DNA from: Minisyncoccia bacterium
GTDB lineage: Bacteria > Patescibacteriota > Minisyncoccia > Phycocordibacterales > UBA9973
Direction of reading: 5' to 3'
Length of the DNA stretch: 64,000 bases
Assembly (NCBI GenBank): GCA_041737125.1
Contig: JBGSSJ010000012.1
Span: 2,637 to 66,636, forward strand
Numbering within the stretch: the stretch's first letter is position 1; each line of letters starts with the position of its first letter. Shown piece after piece: positions 36,745 to 61,800 of this stretch. The notes under the pieces were generated by a model that did not search any database, had not been told where the DNA came from, and saw only the letters and a list, made by a program, of their open reading frames with translations. A program made the position numbers and the translations under genes.

Positions 36745-39576
36745 CTATACCACGATATTCACCAACCTCCCTTTCACATATATAACCCTCTTTACTTCCC
36801 TACCTTCTATCCATGGCATTATTACCTTGTCTTCTAATGCTTGTTTTTTGATTATTTCTTCATTCATATCTGAGTCTATCATCATCTCTGTACGCACTTT
36901 ACCATTAACTTGAACAACTATTTTGAAATTGCTGTCTATAACTTTCTTCTTATCCCACTTTGGCCACTTCGAGACATGTATGGATTTCTTACTAATCCAA
37001 AGCTCTTCAGTTATATGCGGAGCGAATGGTGAGAGTATCTGCAGAAATAATTCAAAATCTTTCTTTGATATACTTTTCGTCTTCTCTACTTCATTAATGA
37101 AAACCATCATTGCAGATATAGCAGTATTGAAACTCATAGACTCAATATCTTCTGTAACTTTCTTGATTGTTTTATGGAGAAGTGTTTCTAATTCTTTATC
37201 CGTCTTACTTGCAAAACTATTACCACTAATACGCCAAACTTTCTCCAAGAATCTTCTGGAGCCTATAATACTCTCAGTACTCCAGGACACTGCTTGATCG
37301 AATGGCCCTATGAACATCTCATATATACGTAAAGTATCAGCCCCGTATAGCTTTACTATATCTTTCGGGTCAATTGTATTACCTACTGATTTAGACATTT
37401 TTACTCCTCCCTCGGCAAGTATCATGCCATGGGAAGTGCGCTTCATATATGGCTCACTTGTAGGGACAAGCTTCAAATCATATAAGAACTTATGCCAGAA
37501 GCGAGAGTACAGTAAGTGCAGTGTCGTATGCTCCATACCACCGTTATACCAATCTACACCATTCTTCATCCAAGCCCGGAGAGCCTTCTTTGATGCGAGT
37601 TCTTTATTATTCTTCGGATCTGTGTACCTTAGGAAGTACCATGAGCTCCCTGCCCAGTTCGGCATTGTGTCAGTCTCCCTTTTGGCTTTGCCTTTACACT
37701 TTGGGCACTTTGTATTGACCCATTTATGCATGATAGCAAGTGGACTCTCGCCATTATCTGTTGGCACATAAGACTTCACTTTTGGTAAAGTTACCGGTAA
37801 ATCTTTCTCTGGTACAGGGACATAACCGCACTTTTCGCAGTGTATTATAGGTATTGGTTCACCCCAGTACCTCTGACGGGAGAATATCCAATCACGAAGT
37901 TTGTATTTTGTTACAATTTTACCACCAACTGCTTTCGTAATTTCTTTTTGAGCATCTACGTTTGATAAATCATTAAACTTACCGGAATTCACTAATATAC
38001 CTTCGTTTGTATAAGCTTGATCTTTCCCCAACATATTATTCCAGAAAATTACAGCTTCCTCTTTATCGATAATTTTTTCTACTTCTTCTTTAGTAAGCCA
38101 TACTATGTCATGTAAATTCTTCTCATTGTCACTTGTATCTTCTTTCTTTCCATCTATTAATTCAAAATATGCTCCTACTACATTTGCCCATCTATTCTCT
38201 TTTTTGTGAGGTGCATAGAATTGTGCATGAGCTCTACCCAATGTACTTATGAATTTTATATTCTGGTATCCAGTTTCTTCTCTTATTTCACGAGCACCAG
38301 CAATATGAGGATCTTCACCATCAGTTCCACCTATTACGAAAGTCTTCCAATTCTGAGTCTTCCACATTAAGCACAGATACTTATCTTCTGACCAATGCTT
38401 CACTATAGATACAATAGTATCTCTTTTTACAAAAGGTTGATCTTTCCTTATTGCACTCTCACCTTCAGTTGTTATAAAAAGTGGGGCGACAACTTGGCGA
38501 ATCTCTTGATTATATTTCTTCGCAAATAGGAAATCACGTTCATCGTGTGCAGGCACAGCCATAACAGCACCAGTACCATAATTCACCAATACATAATCTG
38601 CAATCCATACAGGTACTTCTTCCCAATTTGCAGGATTTATAGCTTTAATACCTTTCACTTCAACCCCAGTCTTTTCTTTGTCTTCTGCGGTGCGATCGAG
38701 TTCTGACTTTTTCTTTACATCTAAAATATATTTCTCTACTTCATTCCAATTTGAAATTTGTGGTTTCAGTTTATTAACTAATTCATGTTCAGGTGCAAGA
38801 ACAACATAGGTCACACCAAAAAGTGTATCGGCTCTTGTTGTAAATACTTTAATTTTCTCTGGAGAATTTTTTATAGAAAATTCTATTTCACTTCCTTCAC
38901 TCTTCCCTATCCAGTTCCTTTGTTGAATTTTTATCTTCTCTAAATAATCCACATCATCTAGATCTTTATCTAGTCTATCTGCATACTTAGTAATGGCTAG
39001 CATCCATTGCTCTTTCTCCCTCTTCTCTGTATCTCCACCACAGCGCTCACATTTGCCATTTACCACTTCTTCATTGGCAAGGCCTATCTTACAATTCAAG
39101 CACCAGTTTATAAAGGTCTTCGACTTATAAGCCAAACCCTTTTTATACATTTGAAGGAAGATCCACTGTGTCCACTTATAATATTTCGGATCAGTAGTAT
39201 TTACTTCACGTGACCAGTCGAAAGAGAATCCAATGGATTTAAGTTGCTTACGGAACATATCAGTATTCTGTTTGGTTACTTTCTCTGGCTGTATACCTGT
39301 CTTTATTGCGTAATTCTCTGTAGGTAAGCCGAAGGCATCCCAGCCTATTGGGTAGAGAACGTTGTAGCCTTCCATTCTGCGCTTCCTTGAAATTATATCC
39401 ATCGCAGTATTCGAGCGTATGTGGCCCACATGAAGTCCCGCTCCAGATGGGTATGGGAATTCTATAAGTCCGTAGAACCTTTTACCTTTGCCTCCGTTCT
39501 TTGCATGATAAATTTTCTTTTTATCCCAAGCCGCTTGATGTTTCTTTTCAATTTTATTATGGTCGTAGTTTTTCAT
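36745..39576 (-). CDS. leuS: Leucyl-tRNA synthetase with an inserted Nudix-hydrolase-like domain
   Basis: 943 aa; HVGH and KMSKS class I motifs; editing-domain motifs TTRADT and GTGAVMAVPAHDERD; conserved RDWIFSRQRYWGEPIPI. A ~134-aa insertion between the editing domain and the RDW block carries a Nudix box. Confidence 0.85.
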   Translation of the reverse strand: MKNYDHNKIEKKHQAAWDKKKIYHAKNGGKGKRFYGLIEFPYPSGAGLHVGHIRSNTAMDIISRKRRMEGYNVLYPIGWDAFGLPTENYAIKTGIQPEKVTKQNTDMFRKQLKSIGFSFDWSREVNTTDPKYYKWTQWIFLQMYKKGLAYKSKTFINWCLNCKIGLANEEVVNGKCERCGGDTEKREKEQWMLAITKYADRLDKDLDDVDYLEKIKIQQRNWIGKSEGSEIEFSIKNSPEKIKVFTTRADTLFGVTYVVLAPEHELVNKLKPQISNWNEVEKYILDVKKKSELDRTAEDKEKTGVEVKGIKAINPANWEEVPVWIADYVLVNYGTGAVMAVPAHDERDFLFAKKYNQEIRQVVAPLFITTEGESAIRKDQPFVKRDTIVSIVKHWSEDKYLCLMWKTQNWKTFVIGGTDGEDPHIAGAREIREETGYQNIKFISTLGRAHAQFYAPHKKENRWANVVGAYFELIDGKKEDTSDNEKNLHDIVWLTKEEVEKIIDKEEAVIFWNNMLGKDQAYTNEGILVNSGKFNDLSNVDAQKEITKAVGGKIVTKYKLRDWIFSRQRYWGEPIPIIHCEKCGYVPVPEKDLPVTLPKVKSYVPTDNGESPLAIMHKWVNTKCPKCKGKAKRETDTMPNWAGSSWYFLRYTDPKNNKELASKKALRAWMKNGVDWYNGGMEHTTLHLLYSRFWHKFLYDLKLVPTSEPYMKRTSHGMILAEGGVKMSKSVGNTIDPKDIVKLYGADTLRIYEMFIGPFDQAVSWSTESIIGSRRFLEKVWRISGNSFASKTDKELETLLHKTIKKVTEDIESMSFNTAISAMMVFINEVEKTKSISKKDFELFLQILSPFAPHITEELWISKKSIHVSKWPKWDKKKVIDSNFKIVVQVNGKVRTEMMIDSDMNEEIIKKQALEDKVIMPWIEGREVKRVIYVKGRLVNIVV
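38029..38430 (-). other. Nudix-hydrolase-like domain inserted in LeuRS (aa ~383-516); Nudix box at nt ~38263..38331
   Basis: GGTDGEDPHIAGAREIREETGY matches G-x4/5-E-x7-REUxEExGU (Nudix signature with one spacing deviation), flanked by beta-strand-like sequence typical of the Nudix fold. Confidence 0.6.
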
Positions 39577-40185: not shown

Positions 40186-40731
40186 ATGGAACATCTTACG
40201 AAGAAATCCGAAGCAACGCTCGGGCATGCAGCAGCGAATGCTACTAGGTGGATAGGCTCTACCAGATCCCTAATCATCCACACTATCCTATTTGCAGGAG
40301 CTTTTTCTTTAGTATTCTTTGGTTTTGAATTTGATAAAATCCTCCTTGTGGTAACGACTATTGTATCTCTCGAAGCTATATATCTATCTATCTTCATCCA
40401 AATAAGTGTAAACAATCAAGCTAAGCACTTGGAAGAAGTGGCTGAAGATGTCGGTGAAATCCAGGAGGATGTCGAAGGAATTGAGAAAGATATCGATGAG
40501 ATTCAGGAAGACGTGGATGAAATCCAGGAAGATGTGGAAGGTATTGAGAAAGATATCGATGAGATTCAGGAAGACGTGGATGAAATCCAGGAAGATGTAA
40601 GCGAAGAAGATGAGGAAGAAACAATTATAAAACAAGATGAGGCTATGCTCTCTCGCATTGAGAATACACTACAAATACTTATAAAAGATATAGAAGACCT
40701 AAAGAAGCAGCAAGAAAATAAAAACAAGTAA
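40186..40731 (+). CDS. DUF1003-like membrane protein with a C-terminal acidic tandem-repeat/coiled-coil tail
   Basis: 181 aa; two TM helices flanking an SxxxQNRQ-like region (ISVNNQAKH), then EIQEDVEGIEKDIDEIQEDVD repeated. Confidence 0.4.
   Translation: MEHLTKKSEATLGHAAANATRWIGSTRSLIIHTILFAGAFSLVFFGFEFDKILLVVTTIVSLEAIYLSIFIQISVNNQAKHLEEVAEDVGEIQEDVEGIEKDIDEIQEDVDEIQEDVEGIEKDIDEIQEDVDEIQEDVSEEDEEETIIKQDEAMLSRIENTLQILIKDIEDLKKQQENKNK
40456..40600 (+). repeat. 63-bp (21-codon) in-frame tandem repeat, ~2.3 copies, encoding EIQEDVEGIEKDIDEIQEDVD
   Basis: GAAATCCAGGAGGATGTCGAAGGAATTGAGAAAGATATCGATGAGATTCAGGAAGACGTGGAT is repeated with a few synonymous changes. Confidence 0.8.
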
Positions 40732-44681: not shown

Positions 44682-46178
44682 TTATATGGACTTAATTTGT
44701 TCTTTCTTGTGATCTTCGATAGCTTTATCTACTTCATCTAGATCACCTTCTATGGCTTCTTTAATTTCTTTTTCTTCTTTGGATAGAATGCGAGTATGGC
44801 GAGTATTTTGTAATATTTCCAGATGTTTCTCTAGGCGCTTTTTTAACAAAAGAAGTATTTTTGAATGGTCACCTCTAACAAGAGCACTGCGAACTATAAT
44901 TTTCTTGTGGAGCCTATCATATTGACGTCCGAGCTTAAATGCACCAATAATCAAAACTATTACTAGTACGATAATTAAATATATTACAGGCACATCAACT
45001 GCCAACATGTTGATAGTGTATGGATCCTTCGCAGGTGCAAGTGGTTGTAATGGTTGTACTTGCTCTACTGGTGCGATAGTTGCAGTGAAAATTCCAACTG
45101 ATTCCACACTGTTACCTGCGCGATCAAATGCTACTAATTTCACAGTATGGTTCCCCGCTATACTATAAGGAAGGCTGTAGTTGCCATCAACAAAATCTGC
45201 ATAATCCACCTTCTTTACCAATACATCATTTATGTAAATTTCATAATAATCTAATCCTGAAGTTTCATCTATGATATCAGCATTTATGTTGAGGACTTTC
45301 TTAGTATCATCATAGATAAAGGTAACATCATTCTTCTTCGGAATAGTAGTATCTATTCTTGCTATATATGTACTAGTCGGACCCCATTTCCCATCTTTCT
45401 GTGCGCGTACTTTGAAGTACCAAATTCCATCTTTCAAGTTTTTCACAGACCTTTCGCTTGTTGCAGGGCTTATTGTCACGCGAGGAACACCCGCAATATT
45501 ACTATCAATACCTGTTTGTACAGAAGTTATCCCTGTTGGTAATTTCCATTTGAATATTGGATTATTATCCTTATACCACAATTCCTGAGATGGATGAGTG
45601 AGTGATGTCACATTTAATGTGATGAGTGATGGTTGTGGTGCGGGTACGTCAGCAACAACCGGCTCCTCCTTTTGCACTATAGAGAGAGTCTTGCCTGTTT
45701 TACTATTTAAGACATCAGTACCAAACCCATCATCCGCACGAACAGCAGAGTCAGAGAAGATTAAGTCAGCCTGGCCAGCTTTCTTTGCTTTCACAACGAA
45801 AGAGAGTGCAGTGCCACTTGAGCCATTGAATCCCGGAGTAGGGATACCTCCATTGAAAGTAATAATTCCACTAACATTCGAATATGCAGGCTCCTCTACC
45901 CACAAGGAGAATACTGAGCCTCCTTTATTTATAGATACTACCTCAAGTAAATCACTTGGATATATAATTTTCGCTTCGGCATTATTGATCGGTACACCTT
46001 CTGAATTTATCACTACTGATAGTGTCGTTATACCTCCAGGCGAAAGACTGGTCGAAGAAGAATTAATTTTAAGTGTAGCCGCGTCTACAGTACTTGATAC
46101 AAAGAATGAAATAAGTAGCAGGCAAAAGAATGCTAATTTAGTTTTTAGTAGATTTTTTATATCCATAGAAGATCCCAC
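44682..46178 (-). CDS. Secreted, C-terminally membrane-anchored protein with an N-terminal cohesin-like domain, beta-sandwich repeats and a cytoplasmic coiled-coil tail
   Basis: 498 aa; signal peptide; N-terminal ~140 aa (TLKINSSS...GGITTLSVVINSEGVPINNAEAKIIYPSDLLEVV...SLWVEEPAY) is paralogous to the upstream 219-aa protein; TM VIYLIIVLVIVLIIGAF near the C-terminus; overlaps the upstream gene by 41 nt. Confidence 0.45.
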   Translation of the reverse strand: MGSSMDIKNLLKTKLAFFCLLLISFFVSSTVDAATLKINSSSTSLSPGGITTLSVVINSEGVPINNAEAKIIYPSDLLEVVSINKGGSVFSLWVEEPAYSNVSGIITFNGGIPTPGFNGSSGTALSFVVKAKKAGQADLIFSDSAVRADDGFGTDVLNSKTGKTLSIVQKEEPVVADVPAPQPSLITLNVTSLTHPSQELWYKDNNPIFKWKLPTGITSVQTGIDSNIAGVPRVTISPATSERSVKNLKDGIWYFKVRAQKDGKWGPTSTYIARIDTTIPKKNDVTFIYDDTKKVLNINADIIDETSGLDYYEIYINDVLVKKVDYADFVDGNYSLPYSIAGNHTVKLVAFDRAGNSVESVGIFTATIAPVEQVQPLQPLAPAKDPYTINMLAVDVPVIYLIIVLVIVLIIGAFKLGRQYDRLHKKIIVRSALVRGDHSKILLLLKKRLEKHLEILQNTRHTRILSKEEKEIKEAIEGDLDEVDKAIEDHKKEQIKSI

Positions 46179-46797
46179 CCAACAAAATAATTACTAATAA
46201 TATTATAACATTGTTATTCATACTAAATCCAGGGAAAATTGTCTTCTCTTCTGTCGGTTCTTCTATTTTACCATCAACTTCTTCTGTAGTAATTTGTGAA
46301 TCTTTTACCACAAGATTTAAAGACATCGATTTTACTATAGTTGATTCTTCTGTCCCCTTTCCATCATTTAAATATGTCTTCACTCCACTCCATGTCATGT
46401 CTATATTACCTGACACTGCAGTACGTAGGTGTAAGGTCAAAACGAGGCCTTCTTTTGCGAGTCCCTCAGGAGTACCACCTACAAAACGAACCGTCTTTCC
46501 CTTCGAATTATATACTGGTTCTACCGGCCACATAGAGAGAGCTGAGCCTTGTTTACTTACTTCTACTGACAAGGAGTCGGCAATAGAGCCTTGTAGAGAC
46601 ACAGTTCCTTCGATAACATTTAAATTCTTCCCTTGTGGATCTATACGTACCTCTACCACTGTTGTAGTATCCCCATCTTTGCTAGTAGGTACCACTTTAT
46701 AGCTTAGTTGGGCTGCCAGTAAATCCTGTGGTACTACGCACAACAAAAAGCTGATTATAAATGCGTATGCTATATGTGATGAGAATATTTTATACAT
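46138..46797 (-). CDS. Secreted, C-terminally membrane-anchored protein with a cohesin-like domain
   Basis: 219 aa; signal peptide; ~130-aa beta-rich domain (KVVPTS...VVEVRIDPQGKNLNVIEGTVSLQGSIADSLSVEV...SMWPVEPVY); Glu/Thr linker; C-terminal TM VIILLVIILLGGIFYGY; begins 7 nt after the giant gene stop. Confidence 0.45.
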   Translation of the reverse strand: MYKIFSSHIAYAFIISFLLCVVPQDLLAAQLSYKVVPTSKDGDTTTVVEVRIDPQGKNLNVIEGTVSLQGSIADSLSVEVSKQGSALSMWPVEPVYNSKGKTVRFVGGTPEGLAKEGLVLTLHLRTAVSGNIDMTWSGVKTYLNDGKGTEESTIVKSMSLNLVVKDSQITTEEVDGKIEEPTEEKTIFPGFSMNNNVIILLVIILLGGIFYGYKKSTKN

Positions 46798-46803
46798 AAT
46801 TAA

Positions 46804-49800
46804 TTATTGTTTTTTAAAGGCGATAGGTTTCTTGCCCCATTGATAAAGAAGGATAGAAAAGTCGACTGAATTTACTTGTTTGTCTAGATTTATATCAGCA
46901 CAAGGGTTATTAAATGGGGATGTTGTTTTCCAGAAAGAAAGCATTATAGAGAAGTCTACTGAATTTACTTTTCCATCATGGTTTAAGTCTGCACCAATAC
47001 ATGCATTCGTTAAAATAGGTGCTACAGATGCCCCACCTCCACCACCTCCCCCTCCACCAGGCGGTGTGACTGAAGTATCGGTACTCGCTGCAAATGACTG
47101 AGATGCAGTTGAGGAATCTGATCCGAACAATACATCCAAATGGAAGTAATAATCACCAGCAATAGGTACAGTCGAGTTCAATGTTGTATCAAAATTTTCT
47201 AATGGCTGAATTAATTTCGCCGCAGTAGAACTAAATATATCATTCCCTCCTCCGCATGTATTGAGTACTGAATCAGTAACACACCATGTGTATTGATATT
47301 CATATGCAGTAGATCCTTCATTCGTAATACGAACTGCAGTAGATATACTTGGAACAATCAAATCAGTAAAGCTCTGAATCAATACTTGCGCAGGAGATCC
47401 AGGAGTACCACTTACTTCACCTGAAGCGACACTCGTGCCAATAATATTTTTCGCATATACTCGGAAATCATACGAGTTATTATTCGCAAGTCCTGTAACT
47501 GTAACAGAAGGAGTAGTACTTACACTATCAGCAAATACAGTCCATGTACCCAATGTCGTAAGTTTATATTCTATAACATAATCAGTTATCGCAGAGCCTC
47601 CATTGGAAAGTGGTGCTGACCAAGACAAGCTTACACTACTATCATCAATGATTGCTGCTAAGTTAGTCGGCGCCCCTGGGACACTCGCAGGAGTTACTCC
47701 AGAACTTGATCCAGAAGACACACCCGTACCGAGAGCATTTGTAGCAGTGACACTAAATGTATAAGTGACTCCATTCGTAAGCCCTGTGAATATTGCAGTC
47801 GTTGTCGCGCTTGTCATTGTAGCGCCGCCTGGACTTGCCGTAATAGTATATGAAGTTATCGGTGAGCCGCCATTTGAAGCTGGAGCAGACCAAGACACAA
47901 TAACGCTCGTATCCGCTGCTTCACCAGCTACGTTCGTAGGAGCTCCTGGAACAGTTGCAGGAGTTACGGAATTACTTGCACTAGATGCAACACTTGTCCC
48001 AACTGCATTAGTTGCAGTGAAAGTGAATGTATATGTCACTCCATTTGTAAGTCCTGTCACAGTGATCGGTGAAGTACCTCCAGTTGCAGTATGTCCACCA
48101 ATGTTTGAAGTAATAGTATACGAAGTGACTGCTGATCCTCCATTGTTCACTGGAGGTGTGAATGTAATAGTTGCTTCGCCATTCCCAGCAACTGCAGTTA
48201 TGCTTGTAGGCGCATCAGGTACAGTCGCAGGCACAATTGAGTTACTTGTTCCTGAAGAAGTACTTGTTCCCATAATATTTGTTGCAGTCACAGTGAATGT
48301 ATAGGTTGTACCATTAGTAAGTCCTGTGACTGTGATTGGTGAACTACCTCCAGTAGCAGTATGACCTCCAACATTTGAAGTGACTGTGTATGAAGTTATC
48401 GCAGATCCACCGTTATTTACTGGAGGTGTGAATGTGATAGTAGCTTCACCATTACCTCGAACTGCAGTTATAGATGTCGGTGCATCCGGAACAGTCGCCG
48501 GAGTTACAGAATTAGTTGTCGCTGAAGCAATTCCTGTACCCACACTATTCGTCGCAGTCACAGTAAATGTATATGTCACTCCATTTGTAAGTCCTGTGAC
48601 TGTGATTGGTGAACTACCTCCAGTTGCAGTATGACCTAAGTTTGAAGTAACTGTATAGATTGTTATGGCAGAGCCGCCATTTGAAGATGGAGCAGTGAAT
48701 GTAATTGTTGCTTGTCCATTACCTGCTGTTGCAGTACCGATAGTAGGAGCTCCTGGTACACTGACCGGAGTTACTGAATTACTAGAACTTGATGCAACAC
48801 TAGTCCCCACATCATTTGTGGCAGTCACTGTGAATGTATATGTCACTCCATTCGTAAGTCCGACAACTACCAAAGGAGATGACCCTCCTGTTGCTGTATG
48901 ACCAAGGTTTGAAGTTACTGTGTAGCTTGTGATTGCTGATCCGCCATTATTTACTGGGGGTGTAAATGTGATAACTGCTTCGCCATTGCCCGCTGTTGCA
49001 GTCCCTATAATAGGAGCATCAGGAACTGTAGCTGGAGTAATAGTATTACTTGGATCTGAAGCGACACTAGTACCTACCGCATTTGTCGCAGTCACTGTAA
49101 ATGTATACGAGACACTATTTGTAAGCCCCGTGACTGTAATTGGAGAGCCGTTACTTGTTGCAGTAAATCCTCCAGGACTTGAAGTCACTGTATAACTTGT
49201 GATTGTAGATCCGCCATTATTCACAGGAGGTGTAAATGTAATTGTCGCTTCACCATTACCCCTGACTGCAATTATAGAAGTAGGTGCGTCAGGAACAGTC
49301 GCCGGAGTTACTGCATTACTTGCAGTTGATGCAACACTCGTGCCTACGGCATTGGTTGCAGTCACAGTAAATGTATATGCGACTCCGTTAGTAAGTCCTG
49401 TGACTACAAGTGGTGAACTACCACCTGTAGTAAAGTGTCCTCCAATACTTGAGGTCACTGTGTATGAAGTTATTGCAGATCCGCCATTTGATATAGGTGC
49501 GTCAAATGTGATAGTTGCTTGTCCATTACTAGAAACTGCAACTATATTTGTCGGTGCATCTGGAACAGTCGCCGGAGTTACAGCGTTGGTCGTGCCTGAA
49601 GCAACACTTGTACCATTTGCATTTGTGGCAGTCACAGTGAACGTGTACGTTGTACCGTTTGTAAGTCCAGTGATTGTTATCGGAGATGTCCCACCACTTG
49701 TAGTAAATCCTCCCGGACTTGAAGTGACTGTGTAGCTTGTAATTACAGAACCACCATTATTTACTGGAGGTGTGAATGTGATAGTTGCTTGACCGTTACC

Positions 49801-52800
49801 CGCTGTTGCAGTGCCTATGATAGGTGCGTCCGGAATCGTTGAAGGAACCACACTATTACTTGTAGCAGATGAGGCACCTGTTCCTGCACTATTCGTAGCA
49901 GTCACTGTAAATGTATACGTTACTCCGTTTGTAAGACCTGTGACTGTGATTGGTGAAGTACCTCCGGTTGCAGTGTGACCAAGATTTGAAGTAACTGTGT
50001 ATGAAGTTACCACAGACCCTCCATTATTTAATGGAGGTGTGAATGTAATAACTGCTTCGCCATTGCCTCCAGTTGCTGTACCTATTGTAGGTGCATCTGG
50101 AACTGTTGCAGGAGTTACAGCATTGGTTGTCGCAGAGGCAACGCTTGTACCATTTGCATTTGTTGCGGTCACAGTAAATGTGTATGAAGTACCGTTTGTA
50201 AGTCCGGTTACCGTGATTGGTGACGTACCTCCTGTAGCAGTGTGTCCAAGATTTGAAGTAACTGTGTAGCTTGTGATTGCAGAGCCACCATTATTTACTG
50301 GAGGTGTGAATGTAATAGTTGCTTGACCATTACCTGGTGTGGCAGTACCAATGATCGGGGCATCTGGAATAGTTTGATAACTAAAGTAAGGATACGATGA
50401 TGCTTCATCGATGGACCAAATAAGTGAAGTGAAATCCCATCCGACAAAAGTAGCTTCTTCTTTCATTTCTGTACTAGTCTTCCCCGTTATCCCAGCTGGA
50501 TCAACACCATTTCCGACACCGTCCCCAGTTGCATATCCTGATGTTGTTGTGTCCCAATAATTTGAAACATATGTCCCTCCAAGTGGATTCCCAGTTACTC
50601 CACCAGTGTACTGAAGTGAAGCTGCACCTGCTGCGCCCGTTCCACCTGTTGAACCTCCAGATCCGCCTACTCCAGCACTTCCGCCTGTACCACCTGTCGC
50701 ACCGTTTGTTTTCGTTCCAGATGGTGCTCCTGTTGCATATGTATTAGTAATAATTGTCGTATTATGACTTCCTAATAGTCCACCCACATACGCAGACCCT
50801 CCTGCACCACCGGCACCACCGGCACCACCATTTCCATTTACTCCAAGTGCTCCTCCTCCTTGAGCGCCTCCTGCGCCGCCCACTCCACCAACACCACCCA
50901 CTCCTGGAGTACCCCCAATTGCAGTAATAGACCCACGCTGGTAGGCATTTGTAATCGCTCCCGTATTTTGCCCGACTAATCCTCCGACAAACACAGCATC
51001 ACCCGCACCTCCTGCACCACCGGCTCCACCGATTGTTCCATTTCCACCATTTCCAGAAACACCTGATCCACCAGCACCTCCTTCACCGCCAGTACCTCCG
51101 ACTGCTCCCGCTGCACCCACACCACCTGTTACTAAAATATTTCCTGATGCATAACTTGTATTAAAATTCCCAGTAGTGATATTCGCTCCCACAAGTCCAC
51201 CCACATAACTTGCGCCAGAAGCACCACCAGCACCTCCTCCTATTGATGCTCCTCCTGCACCACCTGCAAGTGTTCCTCCATTTCCTCCTCTTCCTCCTGC
51301 GCCAGATGCCCCAGCACTTCCACCGTTTCCACCAACAGTAGTGACGTCGCCGGCTGACCAAGAAAATTGAATAATGCCGGCTGTAAAATTATATCCAACG
51401 AGTCCTCCGGCATACAAAGCTCCACCTGCGCCTCCTGCAGCCGTAGTACCACTTCCGCCACCTGCGCCTCCTGCGCCAGAGACACCACCGGTTCCCCCAT
51501 TTCCACTCAATCCTGCAGCCCCACCCACGCCACCAGTGGCTCCATTTACGCTAACATCTCCTAATGCATAGGTAGTATACAATGTTCCAATATTGTATCC
51601 TGCAAATCCTCCACCGTACGTGATACCTCCTGCAGCACCAACAGTTCTTGCACCTGAAGCTCCACCGGTACCACCAGTACCAGAGACATCTCCTGCTCCA
51701 CCTGTCCCACCATTTCCTCCCGCACCACCGACACCTCCTGTGCCCCCTACAAGAGTGAGCGATCCTGTAGAGTAAGAATCCTTAATCGTTCGTGCGGTAT
51801 TATTGAATCCAGTAAATCCTCCACCATAAGCAAGACCTGCGGCACCAGCTGCCCCACCGTTTCCAGCTACTCCACCGACACCTCCGTTGCCACTTACACC
51901 AACTGACCCAGAGGCACCATTGCCTCCAGTTCCACCAGCTCCTCCGGTGCCAGTAATACCGACAACATTACTTGTTGTATATGAAGAGAGAAAAATATTT
52001 CCATCGTTATACCCGACAAATCCACCAGCATACATAACACCTGATGCGCCACCTGCTCCACCTACCCAACCTATGCCACCAGCACTTGATGGGCTTGATA
52101 CTCCTCCATTTCCACCAATTCCACCATTGCCTCCATTCCCGCTTGTTGATGAGACCGTAGTACCAAGCGAATAACTAGTAAGAATTGTATTTGTCGTATT
52201 GACATTAAATCCTGCTAGTCCTCCAGAAGCTGAGACTCCACCTCCACCTGCGGGACCTCCGGCCCCACCAGTTCCTCCTATGTGTGAAGTTCCAAGCGAA
52301 CCATTTCCTCCAGTACCACCATTTGATCCATGTGCTCCATTACCCCCGATCGCAGTCACAGAACCAGTTGCATATGAATTTAAAATAATTCCTGTTGCCG
52401 CATTATTTCCGACAAGTCCACCAGCATACCCCAAACCACCTGCAGCACCACTCCCCCCTGCGCCTCCTGTCGCAGCTGTACCACCAGAGACTGTACTACT
52501 TGCCCCACCCGAAGCTCCATTACTTGATACTCCGGCATTCCCTCCGATAGAAGAGACAGCACCTGTTGCATAAGAACTTCCTTCTATAATTCCTGTATTA
52601 TTTCCGATCAATCCACCAGCATAGCTTGCGCCTCCTGTACCTGCGGTACCACCGGCTCCTCCTACTCCTCCGAGCGCACCAGATCCTGCAATTCCTCCAG
52701 CAACACTTGTAGCTGCATTACCACCTGTACCTCCTGTCGATGTAACATTACGCGTAGCATAACTTGTAGTAATAGTAACAGTACTTCCTAGCTGAGCAAT

Positions 52801-55800
52801 TAATCCTCCTGCGTAAGAAACTCCTCCTGCACCACCTGCACCAGCTGCGACACTCGCTCCTCCTGCACCACCAGCACCACCAGCACCAGGAATCCCAGAG
52901 GCTCTTCCATTTCCACCAAGTCCGCCAAACGACTCCACTGTATTGCCAGTCGAATATGCATGGAAATAATTACTTCCTCCTCCTGCCGCCATATTACTAT
53001 ACCCCACAAGTCCTCCAGCATTTGATTCACCTCCTATACCTCCTGACCCACCTGCACCAGAGGCACCACCTGCTGCACTTGTTGCGCCGTTTGCTCCATT
53101 TCCTCCGATATTTCCTGTACTTCCTGTGCCCCCAGTACTACTAACATTTCCTGTTGCATATGAATTAATAATGTCACTAAGTCCAGCACCTATTCTATTA
53201 TTTCCGATCAATCCACCAGCATAACTTGCACCTCCCACTGCACCAACCACAGCGCCACCACCTGTGCCACCTGCTACTGTTGATCGTGATGCGCCACCGT
53301 TCCCTGATATTCCTGAAATTCCAGCTGTTCCTCCAGTAGAGGAAACATTTCCTGTTGCATATGTATCTAAATAATTACTTGCACCGGTCGTGAAGTTACT
53401 GAAACCTACGAGCCCTCCAGCATTTGCTTCACCTCCGACACCAGCTAATCCTGCCAATGCACCAGGCGCACCTGCATGAGTACTTGTTCCTAGAGAACCA
53501 TCTCCACCATTGCCACCAAGACCTCCATTTCCCCCGAGCCCACCAACAACAGTGATGCTTCCTGTTGCATACGAATCACTAATTCGTACTATTTGTGTTG
53601 TTCCAGTCATACGACCAACAAGTCCTCCTCCGTATGCTAGCCCACCAGCTCCACCTGCGCCACCTGCTCCACCGAGTGCAGAGACTCCACTTGAAATAGT
53701 ACTACCAGAAGTACCTCCAGTCCCCCCATTACCACCAGTTCCGCCAGTACCAGCAGTTGCAGAAAAAGAAATTGACGAATAAGAATTATCTCGAATAATT
53801 CCGAGATTGTCTCCCACCAATCCTCCTACTGCTCGTACACCACCTGTACCACCAATACCTCCAAGAGCTCCAACTCCGCCATTAAATGCCCCTACACCAC
53901 TTCCTCCATTACCACCATTTCCGCCTGTTCCACCACTTTGTTCAAAACCTGAAATAGAAATCAGTGTTGAATATGAGTCTGATACTGCACCTGTTGATGT
54001 GCTTGATCCTAAAAGTCCTCCAATAAATGATCCTTGTGAAGCTCCACCTGCGCCGCCTGCACCACCTGCGCCACCTGCTCCACCTGTTGCCAATCCTGAA
54101 CCTCCATCCCCTCCATTACCTCCATTACCAGGAGTTCCGCCTGTCACCACAATATTACCTGCGCCGGATCCACTATCGACGGTTGCATGCGAAGAAATGA
54201 CATCAGACGTTGTGGATCCAACAAGACCCCCTGCATGAATTATACTTGATTGGTTTCCAGCACCACCAGCACTTCCTGCTGTTCCAGAGTTGATACTTGC
54301 ACTTATTCCATGTGCACCATTGCCTCCATTTCCTCCAGTAATATTGAGAGTTGTTTTTGAGTATGAGTTTGCTTGAATAATTCCAGTGCTATATCCTACT
54401 AATCCTCCAACATAGATACCTCCACCAAAACTTCCTACACCACCTGTTCCATTTAATCCATCAAGCGCTGTGCCCGTACCAATACCACCAATACCACCTA
54501 GAGCACCATGCCCCGCAGAACCACCCACCACTACGATAGTTCCTGTTTCTGCATATGATGAGGTAATTGTTCCTAAACTACTTTGCCCTACAAGTCCTCC
54601 TACGTGCAATGCCGTAGAGGCGGTTGTCGCACCTGAACCACCAGCACCACCATTTCCTGCAACACCTCCGATATGATTCGTACCAAGAGATCCATCACCG
54701 CCATTTCCGCCCTGTCCTCCGTTCCCGCCATTACCTCCTGTTCCTGTCATACTGACTGTCGCATAGGAACTATTAATAATTCCATTTGCTGTGTTGTTTC
54801 TTCCTACTAATCCTCCCAGTGAAAGACTTCCCCCTACGCCTCCTGCTCCACCGATACCACCAGCTGCAGCAGTTCCATTTGTTATAGCTCCAGAAGCACC
54901 AGCAGCGCCTCCTATTCCACCATTTCCTCCAGCTCCTGAAACCGCAACGAGAGATCCTGTTGTATGATAACTTGTTTCAATTCCAATAGAAGAATCCCCT
55001 ACTAATCCTCCTGTAAAGTTTGCACCACCTGCACCACCTATAGCTCCTGCACCACCTGCACCACCTATAGCAGCTCCTCCTCCAGATCCTCCTGAGCCTC
55101 CATTACCACCCGTTCCCCCTATACCAGATGTACCAGAAACAGTATTACTAGAGTATGCATTAATTATCTCACCTATATTTGAAAATCCGACAAGTCCTCC
55201 TGCATACGAGGCGCCTCCAACACCACCAACTCCTCCTATAGCTCCTGCTCCACCGACAGAATTATTTCCACCTACACCGCCTGATCCTGCATTTCCTCCT
55301 GCACCTGCATTTCCTGCACTTGCCATCACTGTACCTGTGGCATATGAATTATCAATATATGCATTTGTTGTAGTAAATCCGATAAGTCCTCCACTATACG
55401 CAGAGCCGCCAGTACCACCGGCTCCACCTACTGCTCCTGCTCCACCAAATATATTATTTATAGTTCCGTCACCACCATTTCCACCACTTGCACCATCCCC
55501 CCCCGTAGCTCCATTTACAGTAACTGAACCTGTTGCATATGAATTTCTTACTACGTATCCAGCACCGGCATTATATCCGACAAGTCCTCCACCATATATT
55601 GCATTACCAGATCCTCCGGCTCCTCCTGCTCCTCCAATAGAACCATTAGCACCTGATGTTCCGGTCGTTCCATTAGCTGCGACTCCACCATTTGCAACGA
55701 CATCATTTGTAGAATGTACAGTATCAATAAGAACATTACTAAGGGAGACATACCCTACAGCACCTCCTGCATGAACTGCACCTGTTACCCACCCAGCACC

Positions 55801-58800
55801 ACCTGCCCCACTTGTACCATTTCTTCCACTTCCTCCCCCACCAGTTCCTCCTGTAGCGCCTGTTCCACCAGATCCTCCAACACCAGCAAAAGTCACAGTA
55901 ATAGTTCCACCACTTGCTTGTGATGAAGAAATATTACCATTACCTTGGCCTGCTATCCCACCTATATATACTGCACCACCTACGTTTCCGGAGCCACCGT
56001 TTCCACCAACACCTCCAGCATGTCCACCAGTTCCAAGTGACCCATTTCCACCAGTACCACCATCTCCTCCCATACCTGCACTTGCTCCATTTCCAGTAAG
56101 ACTTCCTATAACACTCAGATTTGAAATAACTCCAGAAAAGTTAACACCAAAAAATGCAGTATTATCACCAGTAATACCTCCGATATATGTCGCACCTCCT
56201 ATTCCACCTGGACCACCGGTTCCACCACTTGCTGCAGTACCTCCGGCAATATTTCCAGATGCACCAGCCGTGCCACCTACCCCACCGTTTCCACCAACTC
56301 CTCCACTTACTGTAATAGTTGTAATTGTATATGTAAGATCTTTAATCACTCCAGCATTAGACCCCGTTATTCCTCCGCCGTACGCAGCTCCTCCAGTGCC
56401 TCCTGTAACACCCACAGCACCAGTTCCTCCTATTGCTCCACTTCCACCAGCACCACCAGGTGCTCCACCTCCGCCTATTCCACCTGCACCCCCAGTTGAA
56501 GTAATTGTCCCTATAGTATGTGGAGTAGAAAGTGTCGTACTCACCAATCCATTAAACCCAATAATACCTCCAGCATAACTAGCCCCACCGACACCACCGA
56601 AACCACCATTGCCCACATATGCAACACCTGCAAGACCTGCGACTCCCGGACCACTTGATCCTGGAGTACCGCTTGCTCCAGAATTTCCGCCGGCTCCTCC
56701 TATAGCTTCAATATTTCCAGAAGCATATGATCCAGAAGCAACAGTTGCAATATTGTATCCGACAACACCTCCACTTGAAGCAAGACCTCCAGCTCCACCA
56801 GAATTACCTAATGTTGCTGCACCTCCCGCAACAGCATTACTTGAATTACCACCATTTGCGCCTGATCCTCCTAAACCTCCAACTCCTCCGATGGCAGTTG
56901 CATTCCCTGTTGCATATGAACCACCAAGAACAATTCCATTTGTTGAATTATATCCCAGCAATCCACCTGCATATCCTGCACCCGCAGCGCCCCCGATTCC
57001 AAGACTTCCACCACCAGAAGCTCCGATAGTTCCACTTCCACCTGTTCCACCTGCGCTACCGATACCACCTGTTCCACCAGTTGAGATAGTGTTGCCCGTA
57101 GCATATGAATTATTGATAACACCGTTACTAAACCCAACAAGTCCTCCAGCAGAAGAATAACCTGCAGTAGCACTCGTCGCTCCATTTCCTCCTATTGCAC
57201 GGACTCCACCTGCACCACCTGCGCCGGCATTCCCAGAATTTCCACCAATAGAAAACACATCAACTTCTGAGTATGAATAAATAACACTTCCAGAAGAATT
57301 TTGTCCTACAATACCACCTGCAAAAGATAGCCCTCCTGCAGCGCCAGCTATTCCCGCTCCGCCAGCACCACCTATAGCATTTGTTCCACCCGCTCCGCCA
57401 CTGGACCCATCTGCACCATTACCACCAGAGCCTGCAGTGGAATAAACTGACCCTATCTCTGAATATGAATTAGATATTGTTGAAGTATTAAATCCTGCGA
57501 TTCCCCCTGAGTATGCAGTACCACCCACTCCACCTGCGCCACCAACAGAACCAGCAGCACCGACATGACTTGCACCACCTAGAGACCCGTTCCCTGCTGC
57601 GCCTCCAATTGCGCCACTTTTACCAGAAGATGCAGTCGCAGTAACTACACTTGTCGTATAATAATTTGTAATAAAATTCGCATTATGTCCTACAACACCA
57701 CCAGCATATGCAAGTGCACCTGCACCTCCTGCACCACCTGCACCACCTGATGCAGCGATTCCTGAATTAACTGTTGCAGTTGTTGCACCTCCTGCACCTC
57801 CTGCACCACCATCACCTGGAGTTCCACTCGTTGATGTTACTGCACCAGATGTAAGAATTAATGTTTCTGAAGTAATAACTCCAGTACTTTGACCCGCAAC
57901 TCCTCCTGCAAAAGAAGCTCCTCCAACTCCTCCTGCCGCGCCTGCGCCTCCTGCGCCGCCGATGGCATTCGTTCCGCCTGCAGCACCGGCACCGCCTGCA
58001 CCACCATTTCCTCCTGCACCACCAGTAACAATGACATCACCTGTTGAATAACTAGATGCTATCGGTCCCAAAATATATTGTCCTACCACTCCTCCTCCAT
58101 ATCCGGCACCGCCTATACCACCGACAGCTCCTGCACCACCTACTCCACCTGTCACACCTACAGCACCTACTCCTCCATTTCCTCCGTTTCCACCTATACC
58201 TCCAGCACCACCAGTTGCATTTACTGTTCCTGTTCCGTAAGAAAATAGTACTTGTCCGTTAAGATTGTAGCCAATAACACCACCAACATATGCAGCACCT
58301 CCAACTGCTCCAGCACTTCCTGCAATACCAGCAAGACTAGTGCCACCATTTCCACCAAGTGCTCCATTTCCACCTGAGCCACCTGTACCAGTTACTGTGC
58401 TCGTTGAATAATCATTTGTTAATGTGGACCCTGAGTTATATCCAATAACACCTCCCACATATGCAGCACCTCCCACAGTTGCAATAGCACCTGCTCCACT
58501 AAGAGCTCCAGCACCACCAGCTCCACCGGCACCGGCATTCCCACCAGCACCTGCAGTTCCAGTTATAGTCCCTGTTGTGTGATAACTATGACTTGTTACA
58601 TTTGTATTTACACCAACTACACCTCCAATATAAACATCACCTGCAGCACCCGCATTGGCACCTGCAATTCCAGGCAAACCAATAAGACCTGAAACTCCTG
58701 CACCACCACTCCCACCTCCGCCACCTAGTCCTATTACTTGGTTTTCAGAATATGAATATTGAATTATCCCTGTATTACGTCCTGCGAGACCACCAACCTG

Positions 58801-61800
58801 TGCGAAAGTTACAAATGCTGATCCTCCTACACCAGAGGCACCGCCTGCACCTGAAGCTCCGCTAGCCCCCTTTACTCCACCTGAGCCCCCTGTACCACCA
58901 GCACCACCTGAGCCAGCAACTCCGGTAATAACTCCTGTTGTTGCATATGAAGAAAGAATAACTCCAGCATTAAGTCCAGCAAGACCACCAACATACGCTC
59001 CACCTCCTGCACCTCCTGCACCAGCAGCACCTCCTGCACCTCCTGCATGTGCTGCACCAAGAGAAGCACTTCCTCCTGCGCCGCCTGATTGTCCATTTTT
59101 ACCATTTGATCCAGTTCCGGTCACATTGCTTGTTGAATAGTTTGAGCCTATATCTCCGATAATAATTCCAGCTGAAGCATTCTGTCCTACAAGTCCTCCA
59201 GCATGCGCAAGTGACCCTGCACCACCTGCGCCGCCTATTCCACCTATAGCAGCAGTTCCTGTTGTAGCAGTCGCACTTGCACCACCTATACCACCGGTTG
59301 AACTAGTTCCACTTTCTCCACCGAATGCTTCTACATCTCCTGTTGCATATGAAGCGCCTTCAATAATTCCTGAATTATTCCCCACTAAACCACCAACATA
59401 AGTGACTCCACCGAGAGCACCCGCTGCTCCTGCTCCACCTGCTCCACCAATCGCTGCGCCTCCGCCGGCACCCCCAACACCTGCTGTTCCCGCATTTCCC
59501 CCTGTTCCTCCAGTTCCAGTAACAGAACCTGTCGTATATGAAGCGTCAATTACTCCTGTATTAATCCAACCAGCAAGTCCGCCAACATAACTAATACCTC
59601 CCACGCCTGGAGCACCAGCTGCACCACCTGCTCCACCGATACCTGTTCCAGAGTTTGTTCCACCATTACCAGCTGCACCTGAGTCACCACCTGTACCACC
59701 TACACCGATAACTGTCGCCGAACTACTTGATGTTGTTATATTTCCTTGAGCAGAGAAACCGACAAGTCCACCTACATATGATATTGCTCCCGCACCACCT
59801 GCAAGAGTTCCACCTCCCGCACCTGCGACTGTTGCGCCACTTGTTGTATTTCCACCAGCACCACCCGAACCTGATGCACCACCTGCACCACCAGTCCCTG
59901 TAATAAAACCTGATACACTTGCACTGGTGATAGTTCCTGCATTATATCCAGCAAGCCCACCGACGTAGACGATAGACCCCGCTCCGCCAATTGTTCCTGT
60001 ACCTCCCGCTGTAGGTGTTACTCCAGATGTTCCTGTGGCACCATTTGAACCTGTCGCGCCAGATACTCCGACAGCCGTTATAGAAGCATTCGTAAGTACT
60101 ACATTTTCAATTAGGTTTGTTGTATATCCAAAAAGTCCGACATATGCGAGTGTTGTTGTATTAATAAAAAGATTGCTTATCGCATAATTGTCACCATTAA
60201 AATTCCCTGTAAATGGAGTTGTATTTGTTCCGATTGGAATAAATCCGACCCCTGCATTCCATCCTGAAGTCACACTTGCATTAATTGCATTATTTAATTT
60301 GTATGAACTAGCAAGATTAGTTCTCGCTCCTTGTAATCCGTACACATCAAAAACCATAAATGGATCAGTGCTGATTCCCATCCCTGTATATCGTCGAAAT
60401 GTTCCTGCACTTACTGAAAAATTTCCTGTTACAGAAAATGTATCGTTGAGTGGATCAGGTGCAGTAAAGGTAGCTGCGGAAGTTTGAATGTAATCACCAG
60501 ACAACCCACCAGAATTATTTATTATAAGATTTGCATTCTGAGTAATAGTTCCTGTATATCCAGATATAGTAAGAGAGCCTATAGTAAAAGCTTGATCTAT
60601 AATTGCACCATTTGAACCTGTATCAAAAATAACGTTCGTTTCAAAATCAGGTATAGAAGCTCCGCTTGCACCACCAGATGTGGCAGACCAACTAGATGTA
60701 CTACTCCAATTTGCACCAGCTGCTCCTACCCAATATCTTGTAGTGATAGGGTCAACAACTTGATCAATGGTAAGGTCTCCAATAATTTTCAAATCAAATG
60801 TTTCTAAAGGAGTAGAGAGCCCTGATAAAATTATCCTATATTTACCATCTTCAGCAATGACAGGGAAAGCAGCGATAAATTCTCCATCAACAGTATAGAC
60901 TTCAACTGTCACAGCACTACCATCATGAGTAGGCTTTGCATACAAAGTTATATCATTTCCATTATCGAGAAACGTATCAAACGTAACTCGTACAAATTGT
61001 CCGTCTAGAATATCTGCAAAAATTTGATCTCTATATTTTATTGCATCGAAAATATCTTCAAGAATATTTTTATCAGAATCCAGACGAATACCATCTGAAA
61101 TAAAAATAATTTCAAATGTCTGAGTAGAGAGGTGCGGTACTACCCAACTCACGTGATCTATATATTCATCTTCGTCATCGTCGTACGAGACGAATTCCAT
61201 ATTTTCATCTCCATTATTGGTCCATTTTATTTTTATTTGATCTTCTTGTCCTACTTTAAATATTTCTGAAATTTCTATACGGACCGGAACGTCAACCATA
61301 GGAGCTACAGCATCTTGCTCGGGAGTAGACGAAACTACTACTACTTTACCGTTATCTATTACTTGCTCCTCGATAGTTGGTAGGCGACTCGTTTCTTCGC
61401 CAAGTGATGGAGGTATTTCTTCGCTAATTGCTTCCAATGCACTTGAGCCTCCACTATTATCTATATCTTCATTCTTCTCTTCTTCGCTCTCTATAATAAT
61501 TTCTGTTACTACTTCTGGTTCTTCAATTATCTCAGTACTATCTTCATTTACTATTTCTATTACTTCCTCTTCAGCTACTTCAGGCTCGGAAATTGTTTCT
61601 ATAATATCTTCTGTTGTTACTTCTTGTTCTACAGTTACTTCTTCCGTATCTTCTATTATTTCTGTAACAGGTAGCACAGCTTCGATGGTGGGATCATTTG
61701 TAGTAACCTGAATCATTTCTACAGTTTCTTCATTGGTTGTGGATTCAATTATTACTTCATCTTGCGCATCAACAGTAAAATAAAAACTACACAATAAAAA

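Follow-up and report, generated by a model that had tools for sequence, protein, structure and literature searches.

How a giant extracellular protein might be held at a cell surface is the question raised by three genes in a 64,000-nucleotide stretch of Minisyncoccia bacterium DNA (assembly GCA_041737125.1, contig JBGSSJ010000012.1, positions 2,637 to 66,636; this whole stretch is the window). Three consecutive open reading frames (ORFs) on its minus strand encode a giant protein of 5,016 amino acids, a short putative membrane anchor of 219 amino acids and a long one of 498 (Table 1). The ATG of the short anchor gene lies 6 nucleotides past the stop codon of the giant gene, and ychF follows the long anchor gene after a gap of 56 nucleotides. 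A first-pass annotation had singled out the two anchors as tandem relatives that share an N-terminal domain and differ after it. From sequence and structural models, we consider it fairly probable that the three genes form a surface-fibre cassette in which membrane-bound cohesins tether the giant fibre by its dockerin.

We compared the N-terminal domains of the two anchors and found them to be homologous, as the annotation had held, in both sequence and predicted structure. BLASTP aligned residues 21-177 of the long protein with 13-172 of the short one (162 residues, 25% identity, E 3e-9), and hhalign matched the long-family and short-family profiles over 151 columns with a probability of 98.7% and an E of 3.3e-16. 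We then searched AlphaFold2 models of both anchors (mean predicted local distance difference test, pLDDT, of 84.8 for the long and 76.7 for the short) against the PDB with Foldseek, reading template modelling (TM) scores as normalised to the target. The long model matched type I cohesins (1g1k and 6kge, TM 0.76-0.78, root-mean-square deviation 2.5-2.7 Å, about 146 columns) as well as 2w1n, a cohesin and FN3 construct, at E 1e-12. The best match of the short model was 2xdh, a cohesin of Archaeoglobus fulgidus (E 2.4e-7, TM 0.68), followed by 6kgf (CaCohA2), the CipA cohesin 1aoh and dozens more cohesins, with TM 0.63-0.68 and E 2e-7 to 4e-6 across the three named entries. Both predicted structures contain the nine-stranded beta-sandwich (jelly-roll) superposable on solved cohesins, and by this modelled fold the shared domain is a cohesin. 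One relative carries the NCBI name 'cohesin domain-containing protein'.

A dockerin-bearing protein is encoded in the same organism, by the adjacent upstream gene. The giant protein has a signal-like N-terminus, an N-terminal half of Gly-rich repeats and about 11-15 FN3 domains (Pfam fn3, E 2.8e-96) upstream of a C-terminal dockerin. Pfam matched nothing in its first 2,517 residues, and found no carbohydrate-binding module and no enzyme domain in it. With a cut-off of 22.9 bits, PF00404 (Dockerin_1) gave 32.4 for the last 598 amino acids and 30.0 for the C-terminal half, and relatives carry precomputed PF00404 matches and the NCBI name 'dockerin type I repeat-containing protein'. The two repeats read DLNHDGKVNSVDFSIMLSFWKT and DINLDKQVNSVDFSILLYQWGK, with eight residues remaining before the stop codon. 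Each presents Asp or Asn at positions 1, 3, 5, 9 and 12, the calcium ligands of a type I dockerin, and then a helix (DLNHDGKVNSVD... and DINLDKQVNSVD..., a duplication of about 22 residues). Across 70 related modules, D1, D12, F13 and S14 are present in 100%, N3 in 96-100%, D5 in 90-100% and W20 in 99-100%, position 9 is taken by N or D, and the two repeats are joined in every case by a linker of 9 amino acids. The repeats are kept asymmetric throughout these modules, the first ending in [AY]FWK[TS] and the second in YQWGK. In the whole window there are no more than this one dockerin and the two cohesin ORFs.

We next asked how general this arrangement is, using a profile of the long protein against one genome per species. 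The search returned 352 related stretches, of which 80 loci were kept and scanned with our own hidden Markov models (HMMs) for each cohesin type and for the tail of the long anchor, and with a regular expression for the dockerin, on all of which the counts depend. A short-type ORF (196-339 amino acids) lies directly upstream of a long-type ORF (480-667 amino acids) in 68 of the 80 loci, so that an orthologue of the short anchor occupies the same position as in the window; 3 loci have both cohesins fused in one ORF and 9 have the long type alone. Of the 71 two-cohesin loci, 68 have a dockerin motif no more than 1.5 kb upstream, as against 0 of the 9 lone long genes, and the motif ends ORFs that often exceed 3,000 amino acids before the locus edge, a lower bound on giant gene size because the loci were cut at 6-10 kb. 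Starting from the dockerin instead, its profile found at least 542 relatives in metagenome contigs; among the 40 loci with a module recognised by the regular expression and at least 2.6 kb downstream, two cohesin domains follow immediately in 37, one in 2 and none in 1. This linkage, seen from both directions, indicates that the dockerin subtype and the cohesin pair belong together. Judged by record titles, the 80 loci are almost all metagenome-assembled genomes with Patescibacteria-type names (Parcubacteria, Paceibacterota, Nomura-, Falkow-, Wolfe-, Wildermuth-, Niyogi- and Gribaldobacteria); Candidatus Saccharibacteria is a frequent label among them, and two bear the name Flavobacteriaceae or Gammaproteobacteria.

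Hydropathy and charge suggest how the three proteins are placed. In all three, the N-terminus runs from a basic through a hydrophobic stretch to a small-residue motif (TVDA/AT in the long anchor, DLLA/AQ in the short anchor and TVDA/QD in the giant protein, the slash marking the putative cleavage point). A second hydrophobic segment occurs only in the two cohesin proteins, at the C-terminal end; by hydropathy the giant protein has no C-terminal membrane helix, its sole hydrophobic segment being N-terminal. The membrane helix of the long anchor is preceded by 1 K/R and 2 D/E and followed within 15 residues by 4 K/R and 1 D/E, and the short anchor ends after its helix in YGYKKSTKN, with 3 K/R and no acidic residue. 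Because a C-terminal transmembrane helix is followed by net positive charge in each, the positive-inside rule predicts that the cohesins face outward and the C-termini lie in the cytoplasm; hydropathy, the signal-like N-termini and this rule agree in placing the shared domain outside the cell, where the annotation had put it. The C-termini consist of a membrane helix and basic residues, and Pfam found no SLH domain. The two proteins would thus work like an anchoring scaffoldin without belonging to the SLH-anchored or sortase-anchored families.

In the mechanism that we propose, the giant protein would be exported by Sec with its N-terminus first, so that the calcium-binding, type I-like dockerin at its C-terminus would be the last part to emerge. 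There it would be captured non-covalently by the cohesins encoded, and probably co-translated, next door. The two anchors would be type I membrane proteins with one cohesin each outside the cell, held by a membrane helix in place of SLH or sortase anchors, and the fibre would be tethered to the cytoplasmic membrane and project with its N-terminal part distal. The long anchor would raise its cohesin on a two-domain Ig-like stalk, while the short anchor would keep its cohesin near the membrane.

Within each locus, the long and short cohesins are only 22-39% identical; the duplication is therefore likely old, with both copies maintained, and we read the two anchors as ancient, non-redundant paralogues. 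An invariant core is common to both (S88, W93, P97, G110, G116 and D150-G151-x-G153-T154 in the numbering of the long protein), and the conserved motifs around it differ between them (WVEEP versus WPxEP, NGGVPTPGF versus VGGTPxGL and RANDGLGTDV versus YLNDGKGTEE). The ectodomain of the long form is always larger than that of the short form, the long form having more immunoglobulin (Ig)-like domains where the short form has one, and a 78-residue tail occurs in the long form only.

The model and the hydropathy profile of the long anchor bear out the layout given in the annotation, with additional beta-rich domains, a membrane helix and a helical tail after the cohesin. The signal-like segment ends at A33, which together with A34 is invariant in the family. 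The beta-rich region, described as about 250 amino acids of possibly Ig-like sequence, is indeed Ig/FN3-like and comprises two domains; the folded part amounts to about 180 amino acids, the rest being two low-confidence linkers (residues 172-183 and 371-395). Foldseek matched the stalk to FN3 and Ig arrays, and weak Pfam and NCBIfam matches were to Big_13, PKD and OmpL47, with DUF7743 in 8 of 36 relatives. A G-S-F motif stands just before the membrane helix in long-type relatives; the window's long protein does without it.

The cytoplasmic tail differs in part from its first description as a coiled coil of about 90 amino acids. It is helical, with heptad-like stripes, but measures 78 amino acids and is modelled as two amphipathic helices rather than one long coiled coil. 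AlphaFold2 places helices at residues 398-435, 438-462 and 467-497, the latter two on either side of an R-I-L-S-K-E-E turn that is invariant in the family as R-x-L-S/T-x-E-E and looks like a helix cap. Hydrophobic residues recur at a spacing of 3-4 (L442/L445/L449/L453/L456 and I472/I476/L480/V483/I487), and a short helical hairpin that could pack on itself or oligomerise fits the tail better. Its core (residues 444-485) is the most conserved segment of the long protein, with a mean identity of 78% compared to 65% for the cohesin, 57-60% for the Ig-like domains and 17-39% for the linkers and membrane helix. A tail profile run against 1.84 billion representative proteins found 132 proteins, almost all with the tail C-terminal. 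It directly follows a membrane helix wherever a tail-bearing sequence was read, and all inspected proteins with an intact N-terminus begin with the same cohesin-type domain, with varying stalks. The tail matched no Pfam family beyond scattered sub-threshold hits, and its HMM matched the long protein alone among all window ORFs. On this distribution we regard it as a module restricted to the long anchor family. Two relatives, P0166 (563 amino acids) and P0172 (464 amino acids), carry the membrane helix and tail twice in tandem, as a duplicated module or as merged genes.

Such conservation and restriction argue for a specific role. The annotation had suggested that the long form couples the external fibre to a cytoplasmic signalling or cytoskeletal partner. 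When ORFs within 4 kb were clustered in 77 loci, no conserved partner gene emerged downstream of the long gene, the best neighbour being housekeeping synteny (ychF, 13 of 77 loci). The probable function of the tail is to oligomerise or to serve as a stopper or a docking site; we hold a stopper or oligomerisation role to be somewhat more likely than signalling, and a specific partner stays in play because the tail is so highly conserved.

The short anchor likewise has the layout first ascribed to it, in both model and hydropathy, with a beta domain followed by a Glu/Thr linker and a membrane helix. A28 is invariant and A29 nearly so in its family. In most lineages the short form is about 290-320 amino acids long and has one Ig-like domain of the DUF7743 type, which the window's short form is without; the latter is therefore best seen as a reduced variant, and it may plausibly serve as a simple anchor, as had been proposed. 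Its C-terminal end (46138..46245, minus strand) consists of F-P-G-F, five residues, the membrane helix and YGYKKSTKN, a layout that resembles the tripartite PGF-CTERM and PEP-CTERM signals, and its family as a whole keeps an F-[PS]-G-F motif and the YGYKK end. We considered this FPGFSMNNN-helix-YGYKKSTKN end as a sorting signal for an exosortase or archaeosortase (PGF-CTERM) or for a sortase and set the idea aside, with no NCBIfam match at E ≤ 1. The TLxTC sortase signature is absent from every window ORF, and no sorting enzyme was seen in the window. Conservation of YGYKK may partly stem from the same DNA also encoding the start of the overlapping long gene.

Read mechanically, the long ORF begins at GTG 46178 and overlaps the short gene by 41 nucleotides, the figure given in the annotation. 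Homologues of the long anchor begin at a Met aligned with residue 5 (ATG 46166), M5 is nearly invariant in an alignment of 36 sequences, and gene calls in three related contigs give a short/long overlap of 29 nucleotides. The identical long anchor sequence has been called publicly both as 494 amino acids (P0001) and as 498 (P0268). Based on the starts of homologues, the conservation of M5 and the gene calls of relatives, translation probably starts at ATG 46166, for a protein of 494 amino acids, and the overlap is most likely 29 nucleotides, the larger value resting on a GTG start that is probably wrong. Among 66 related pairs the overlap is most often 29 nucleotides (19), 20 (9) or 26 (6), nearly always 2 modulo 3. 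That the genes overlap in most relatives fits the translational coupling proposed for them, which is itself a reasonable inference; the two anchor genes are probably coupled. A scan found no terminator-like site inside the three-gene cassette, and promoter and terminator scans of it gave nothing above shuffled expectation.

Table 1. Coordinates of the cassette genes and their parts in the window. Residue numbers of the long anchor count from GTG 46178.
Feature	Position	Strand	Basis or remark
Giant protein gene (presumed cargo, 5,016 amino acids)	46804..61854	-	ORF list
Dockerin module, giant protein C-terminus	46831..47001	-	two 22-residue repeats, 46924..46989 and 46831..46896; 9-residue linker
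Short anchor gene (219 amino acids)	46138..46797	-	ORF; 20 homologues found
Short anchor signal-peptide-like N-terminus (residues 1-28, ...DLLA/AQL)	46714..46797	-	hydrophobic segment 3-32
Short anchor cohesin-fold domain (residues 29-162)	46312..46713	-	pLDDT mostly 80-95
Short anchor disordered acidic Glu/Thr linker with F-P-G-F (residues 163-195)	46213..46311	-	pLDDT < 50 (166-195)
Short anchor predicted C-terminal membrane helix (about residues 194-212)	46162..46218	-	hydropathy peak 186-216; AlphaFold2 helix 196-218
Short/long gene overlap, probably 29 nucleotides	46138..46166	-	from ATG 46166; 41 nucleotides if GTG 46178 is used
Long anchor gene	44682..46178	-	498 amino acids from GTG 46178; 313 homologues at E ≤ 1e-3
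Long anchor signal-peptide-like N-terminus (residues 5-33, ...TVDA/ATL)	46080..46166	-	hydrophobic segment 9-38
Long anchor cohesin domain (residues 34-167)	45678..46079	-	pLDDT mostly 82-96; Foldseek
Long anchor stalk, two Ig/FN3-like beta-sandwiches (residues 190-275 and 276-366)	45081..45611	-	pLDDT 94-98
Long anchor predicted membrane helix (residues 398-420)	44919..44987	-	hydropathy maximum 3.19 over 386-420
Long anchor conserved tail, predicted cytoplasmic (residues 421-498, 78 amino acids)	44685..44918	-	topology signals, model

Several points weigh against a fibre tethered in this way. The anchor structures are predictions, with a predicted TM score of 0.40 for the whole long protein, and topology and signal cleavage were read from hydropathy and charge. 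The Pfam Cohesin family PF00963, whose curated cut-off is 24.1 bits, gives the whole long protein 13.6 bits and its isolated domain 19.0, and it matches neither the short protein nor any of 20 short-type relatives. PDB sequence-profile searches with the long, short and combined cohesin-domain profiles gave no match at E ≤ 0.1; the third match of the combined profile was the ScaB cohesin of Ruminococcus flavefaciens (5m2o, E 0.62, 39 residues), and the top matches were otherwise chance. Identity as cohesins therefore rests on the fold and on marginal Pfam matches (PF00963 at E ≤ 0.01 in 7 of 36 long-type relatives, with P0045 alone passing the cut-off at 25.5 bits). One could conclude from the Pfam scores that the domains are cohesin-like in fold only and bind no dockerin, the anchors being unrelated surface or envelope proteins that share the giant's operon, especially as beta-sandwiches recur in many adhesins and CNM and Als3 appear low in the Foldseek list of the short model. 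However, the top structural matches are overwhelmingly bona fide cohesins, a long-family member does pass the Pfam threshold, and the reciprocal, near-obligate linkage to a dockerin would be hard to explain otherwise, which makes such a coincidence very unlikely. A further difficulty is that one dockerin faces two cohesins, an imbalance that tethering does not explain, and that the divergence of the cohesins does not follow that of the dockerin halves (Spearman -0.05 and 0.13, n = 66). This comparison is crude and ignores phylogeny, and so does no more than weaken the idea that each cohesin is matched to one half.

With two cohesins, the dockerin might be bound at either of two heights, handed over from one to the other or clamped by both at once, or one cohesin might take a second ligand. 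If the labour were divided, one cohesin would bind the giant's dockerin and the other a different ligand, for example the other anchor, a component of the cell wall or of the host, or a divergent dockerin from another gene of the genome. The low identity of the paralogues in every locus and their differing motifs (WVEEP versus WPxEP among them) would suit such a division, as would the high specificity known for cohesin-dockerin pairs (PMC9012536). We nonetheless think it unlikely: the dockerin subtype is followed by both cohesins in 37 of 40 cases and the pair stands behind a dockerin in 68 of 71, the window contains no second dockerin, and a protein search with the dockerin module, although uninformative on other cargo types, yielded just 21 short C-terminal fragments, all of this sort. 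Alternatively, both anchors might act on one dockerin, either as a heteromeric clamp that binds its two non-identical faces at once or through a hand-over in which the membrane-proximal short anchor would take up the dockerin on its exit from SecYEG and then deliver it to the stalked long anchor. Fixed stoichiometry is suggested by the strict 1:1:1 linkage and the overlapping genes, the dockerin repeats are each conserved yet consistently different at positions 18-22 in the 70 modules, the cohesins are fused in three lineages (L033, L059 and L068), and the long form is always the longer of the two. The uncorrelated divergence of cohesins and dockerin halves speaks against this, as does the classical dual-binding mode, in which a dockerin is occupied by a single cohesin at any moment; PDB entries 2vn5 and 2vn6, both in the Foldseek list of the long model, belong to the work on that mode. 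A joint action of both anchors is, in our estimate, quite unlikely, and we continue with the tethering of the fibre through its dockerin.

Among the closest known systems is the CttA-ScaE adhesion complex of R. flavefaciens, which withstands 600-750 pN (PMC4266597). There too a non-enzymatic adhesive protein is held by its C-terminal dockerin on a single-cohesin anchor, in a geometry where the cohesin is fixed by its C-terminus and the dockerin is pulled from its N-terminus. However, ScaE is sortase-linked to the wall and CttA has an X-dockerin, whereas the present anchors have membrane helices and no X-module was identified; the cargo here is a 5,016-amino-acid Gly-rich/FN3 fibre, and there are two paralogous anchors, one with a cytoplasmic tail. 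Surface cohesins also tether dockerin-bearing partners in the scaffoldins of Clostridium thermocellum (SdbA, OlpB, Orf2p, OlpA and OlpC), and the type I cohesin structures of OlpA and OlpC (4dh2 and 3ul4) are among the Foldseek matches of the anchors. Those scaffoldins differ in using SLH modules on a Gram-positive wall, in contrast to a membrane helix with no multi-cohesin scaffoldin and no enzymes. The genes do not describe a cellulosome: each anchor has one cohesin, and the sole dockerin protein found is made of FN3 and Gly-rich sequence. Non-cellulosomal cohesins and dockerins are known in Bacteria and Archaea, for example in Archaeoglobus fulgidus and ANME archaea (PMC9012536), and like the present pair they take these modules outside cellulose degradation, the A. 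fulgidus entry 2xdh being the best match of the short anchor. Their domains are scattered over variable proteins, unlike the fixed cassette with dedicated paralogous membrane anchors seen here.

Animal TMEM132 offers an analogy for the long anchor, with a cohesin homologue, three Ig domains, a transmembrane helix and cytoplasmic motifs through which a connection to intracellular machinery has been proposed (PMC6030884). The two share their order of parts (signal peptide, cohesin, tandem Ig-like domains, membrane helix, conserved tail), and the likeness is one of analogy only: no dockerin partner is known for TMEM132, whose tail bears eukaryotic WIRS and PP1 motifs, whereas the long anchor has a dockerin partner encoded next door and a two-helix tail. 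Following the logic of TMEM132 or integrins, one might picture the long anchor as a transmembrane adhesion receptor whose tail, through a partner or by clustering, would couple the load or occupancy of the fibre to the cell interior; it would form an obligate pair with the short anchor, their cohesins gripping two non-identical faces of the dockerin, and the whole would be the main host-attachment organelle of Parcubacteria. We regard this larger picture as rather unlikely.

Closer in phylogeny, SEML1_0315 of the Saccharibacterium Southlakia epibionticum is an essential dockerin-domain envelope protein for which host-cell interaction has been suggested (PMC10633639). By that description it resembles the giant protein as a dockerin-bearing envelope protein in Patescibacteria; it belongs to another class of the phylum, and the passage on it in that source describes no cohesin partner or anchor pair. 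We found no description of the cassette in the full-text literature on cohesins or dockerins of Parcubacteria, Patescibacteria or the candidate phyla radiation (CPR), in a search whose coverage excludes most subscription journals. We regard the modules as known ones in a new, conserved and lineage-wide arrangement, with a two-to-one stoichiometry and an uncharacterised cytoplasmic module.

The Parcubacteria/Paceibacteria make up a very large, uncultured part of the CPR whose mode of attachment to hosts or surfaces is not known, and for Patescibacteria the literature that we found is confined to Saccharibacteria, where it treats type IV pili and a single essential dockerin protein. The cassette provides a concrete and widespread candidate for an attachment apparatus whose three parts are defined. 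Research on cohesins and dockerins would gain from it anchoring by a membrane helix, together with a conserved two-cohesin, one-dockerin arrangement that single and dual binding-mode models do not obviously explain. The consensus of the dockerin subtype is very tight (DFSI[LM]L helices, 9-residue linker), and with its cohesins it could serve as an orthogonal engineering pair.

Some loci depart from the common arrangement. The fused two-cohesin ORFs are 821-908 amino acids long (L033, 1076..3538; L059, 981..3704; L068, 6784..9384) and are either natural or the product of read-through or of a frameshift where the genes overlap. At L005/L007 (GCA_964356795.1, CAYHIK010000001.1), a lone long anchor 61-63% identical to that of the window has no short gene or dockerin within 10 kb upstream, where TatC/TatA, a run of N (an assembly gap) and large ORFs like phage tail-fibre proteins are found instead; we treat it as an exception or an assembly problem. 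Similar lone long genes occur in L055, L075 and L085, and L008 has a second cohesin ORF downstream rather than upstream.

The giant gene has some further features. A Cys precedes each dockerin repeat (46900..46902 and 46999..47001, minus strand, in NACIGAD... and NNPCAD...), and of the 70 related modules 48 have a Cys ahead of repeat 1 and 31 have one in the linker between the repeats; going by sequence, the pair could form a disulfide clasp across the dockerin. Nine consecutive Gly codons (47032..47058, minus strand) lie 14 residues ahead of the dockerin. The Gly-rich region (50000..60000) has a GC content of about 0.50, compared to 0.33-0.43 elsewhere outside the giant gene, and a strong negative GC skew.

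Two other genes of the window stand out. A 181-amino-acid DUF1003-like protein with two membrane helices (40186..40731, plus strand) contains a perfectly duplicated acidic helical segment (EDVEGIEKDIDEIQEDVDEIQ, twice); members of its family turn up no more than 4 kb downstream of the cohesin pair in 7 of 77 loci, probably through simple synteny. The leucyl-tRNA synthetase (943 amino acids, 36745..39576, minus strand) carries a NUDIX domain inserted after its editing domain (PF00293, residues 396-501, Nudix box ...REIREETGY), which scores 34.2 bits where the cut-off is 21.1. This insertion does not occur throughout, since the syntenic synthetase in L003 has only 829 amino acids.

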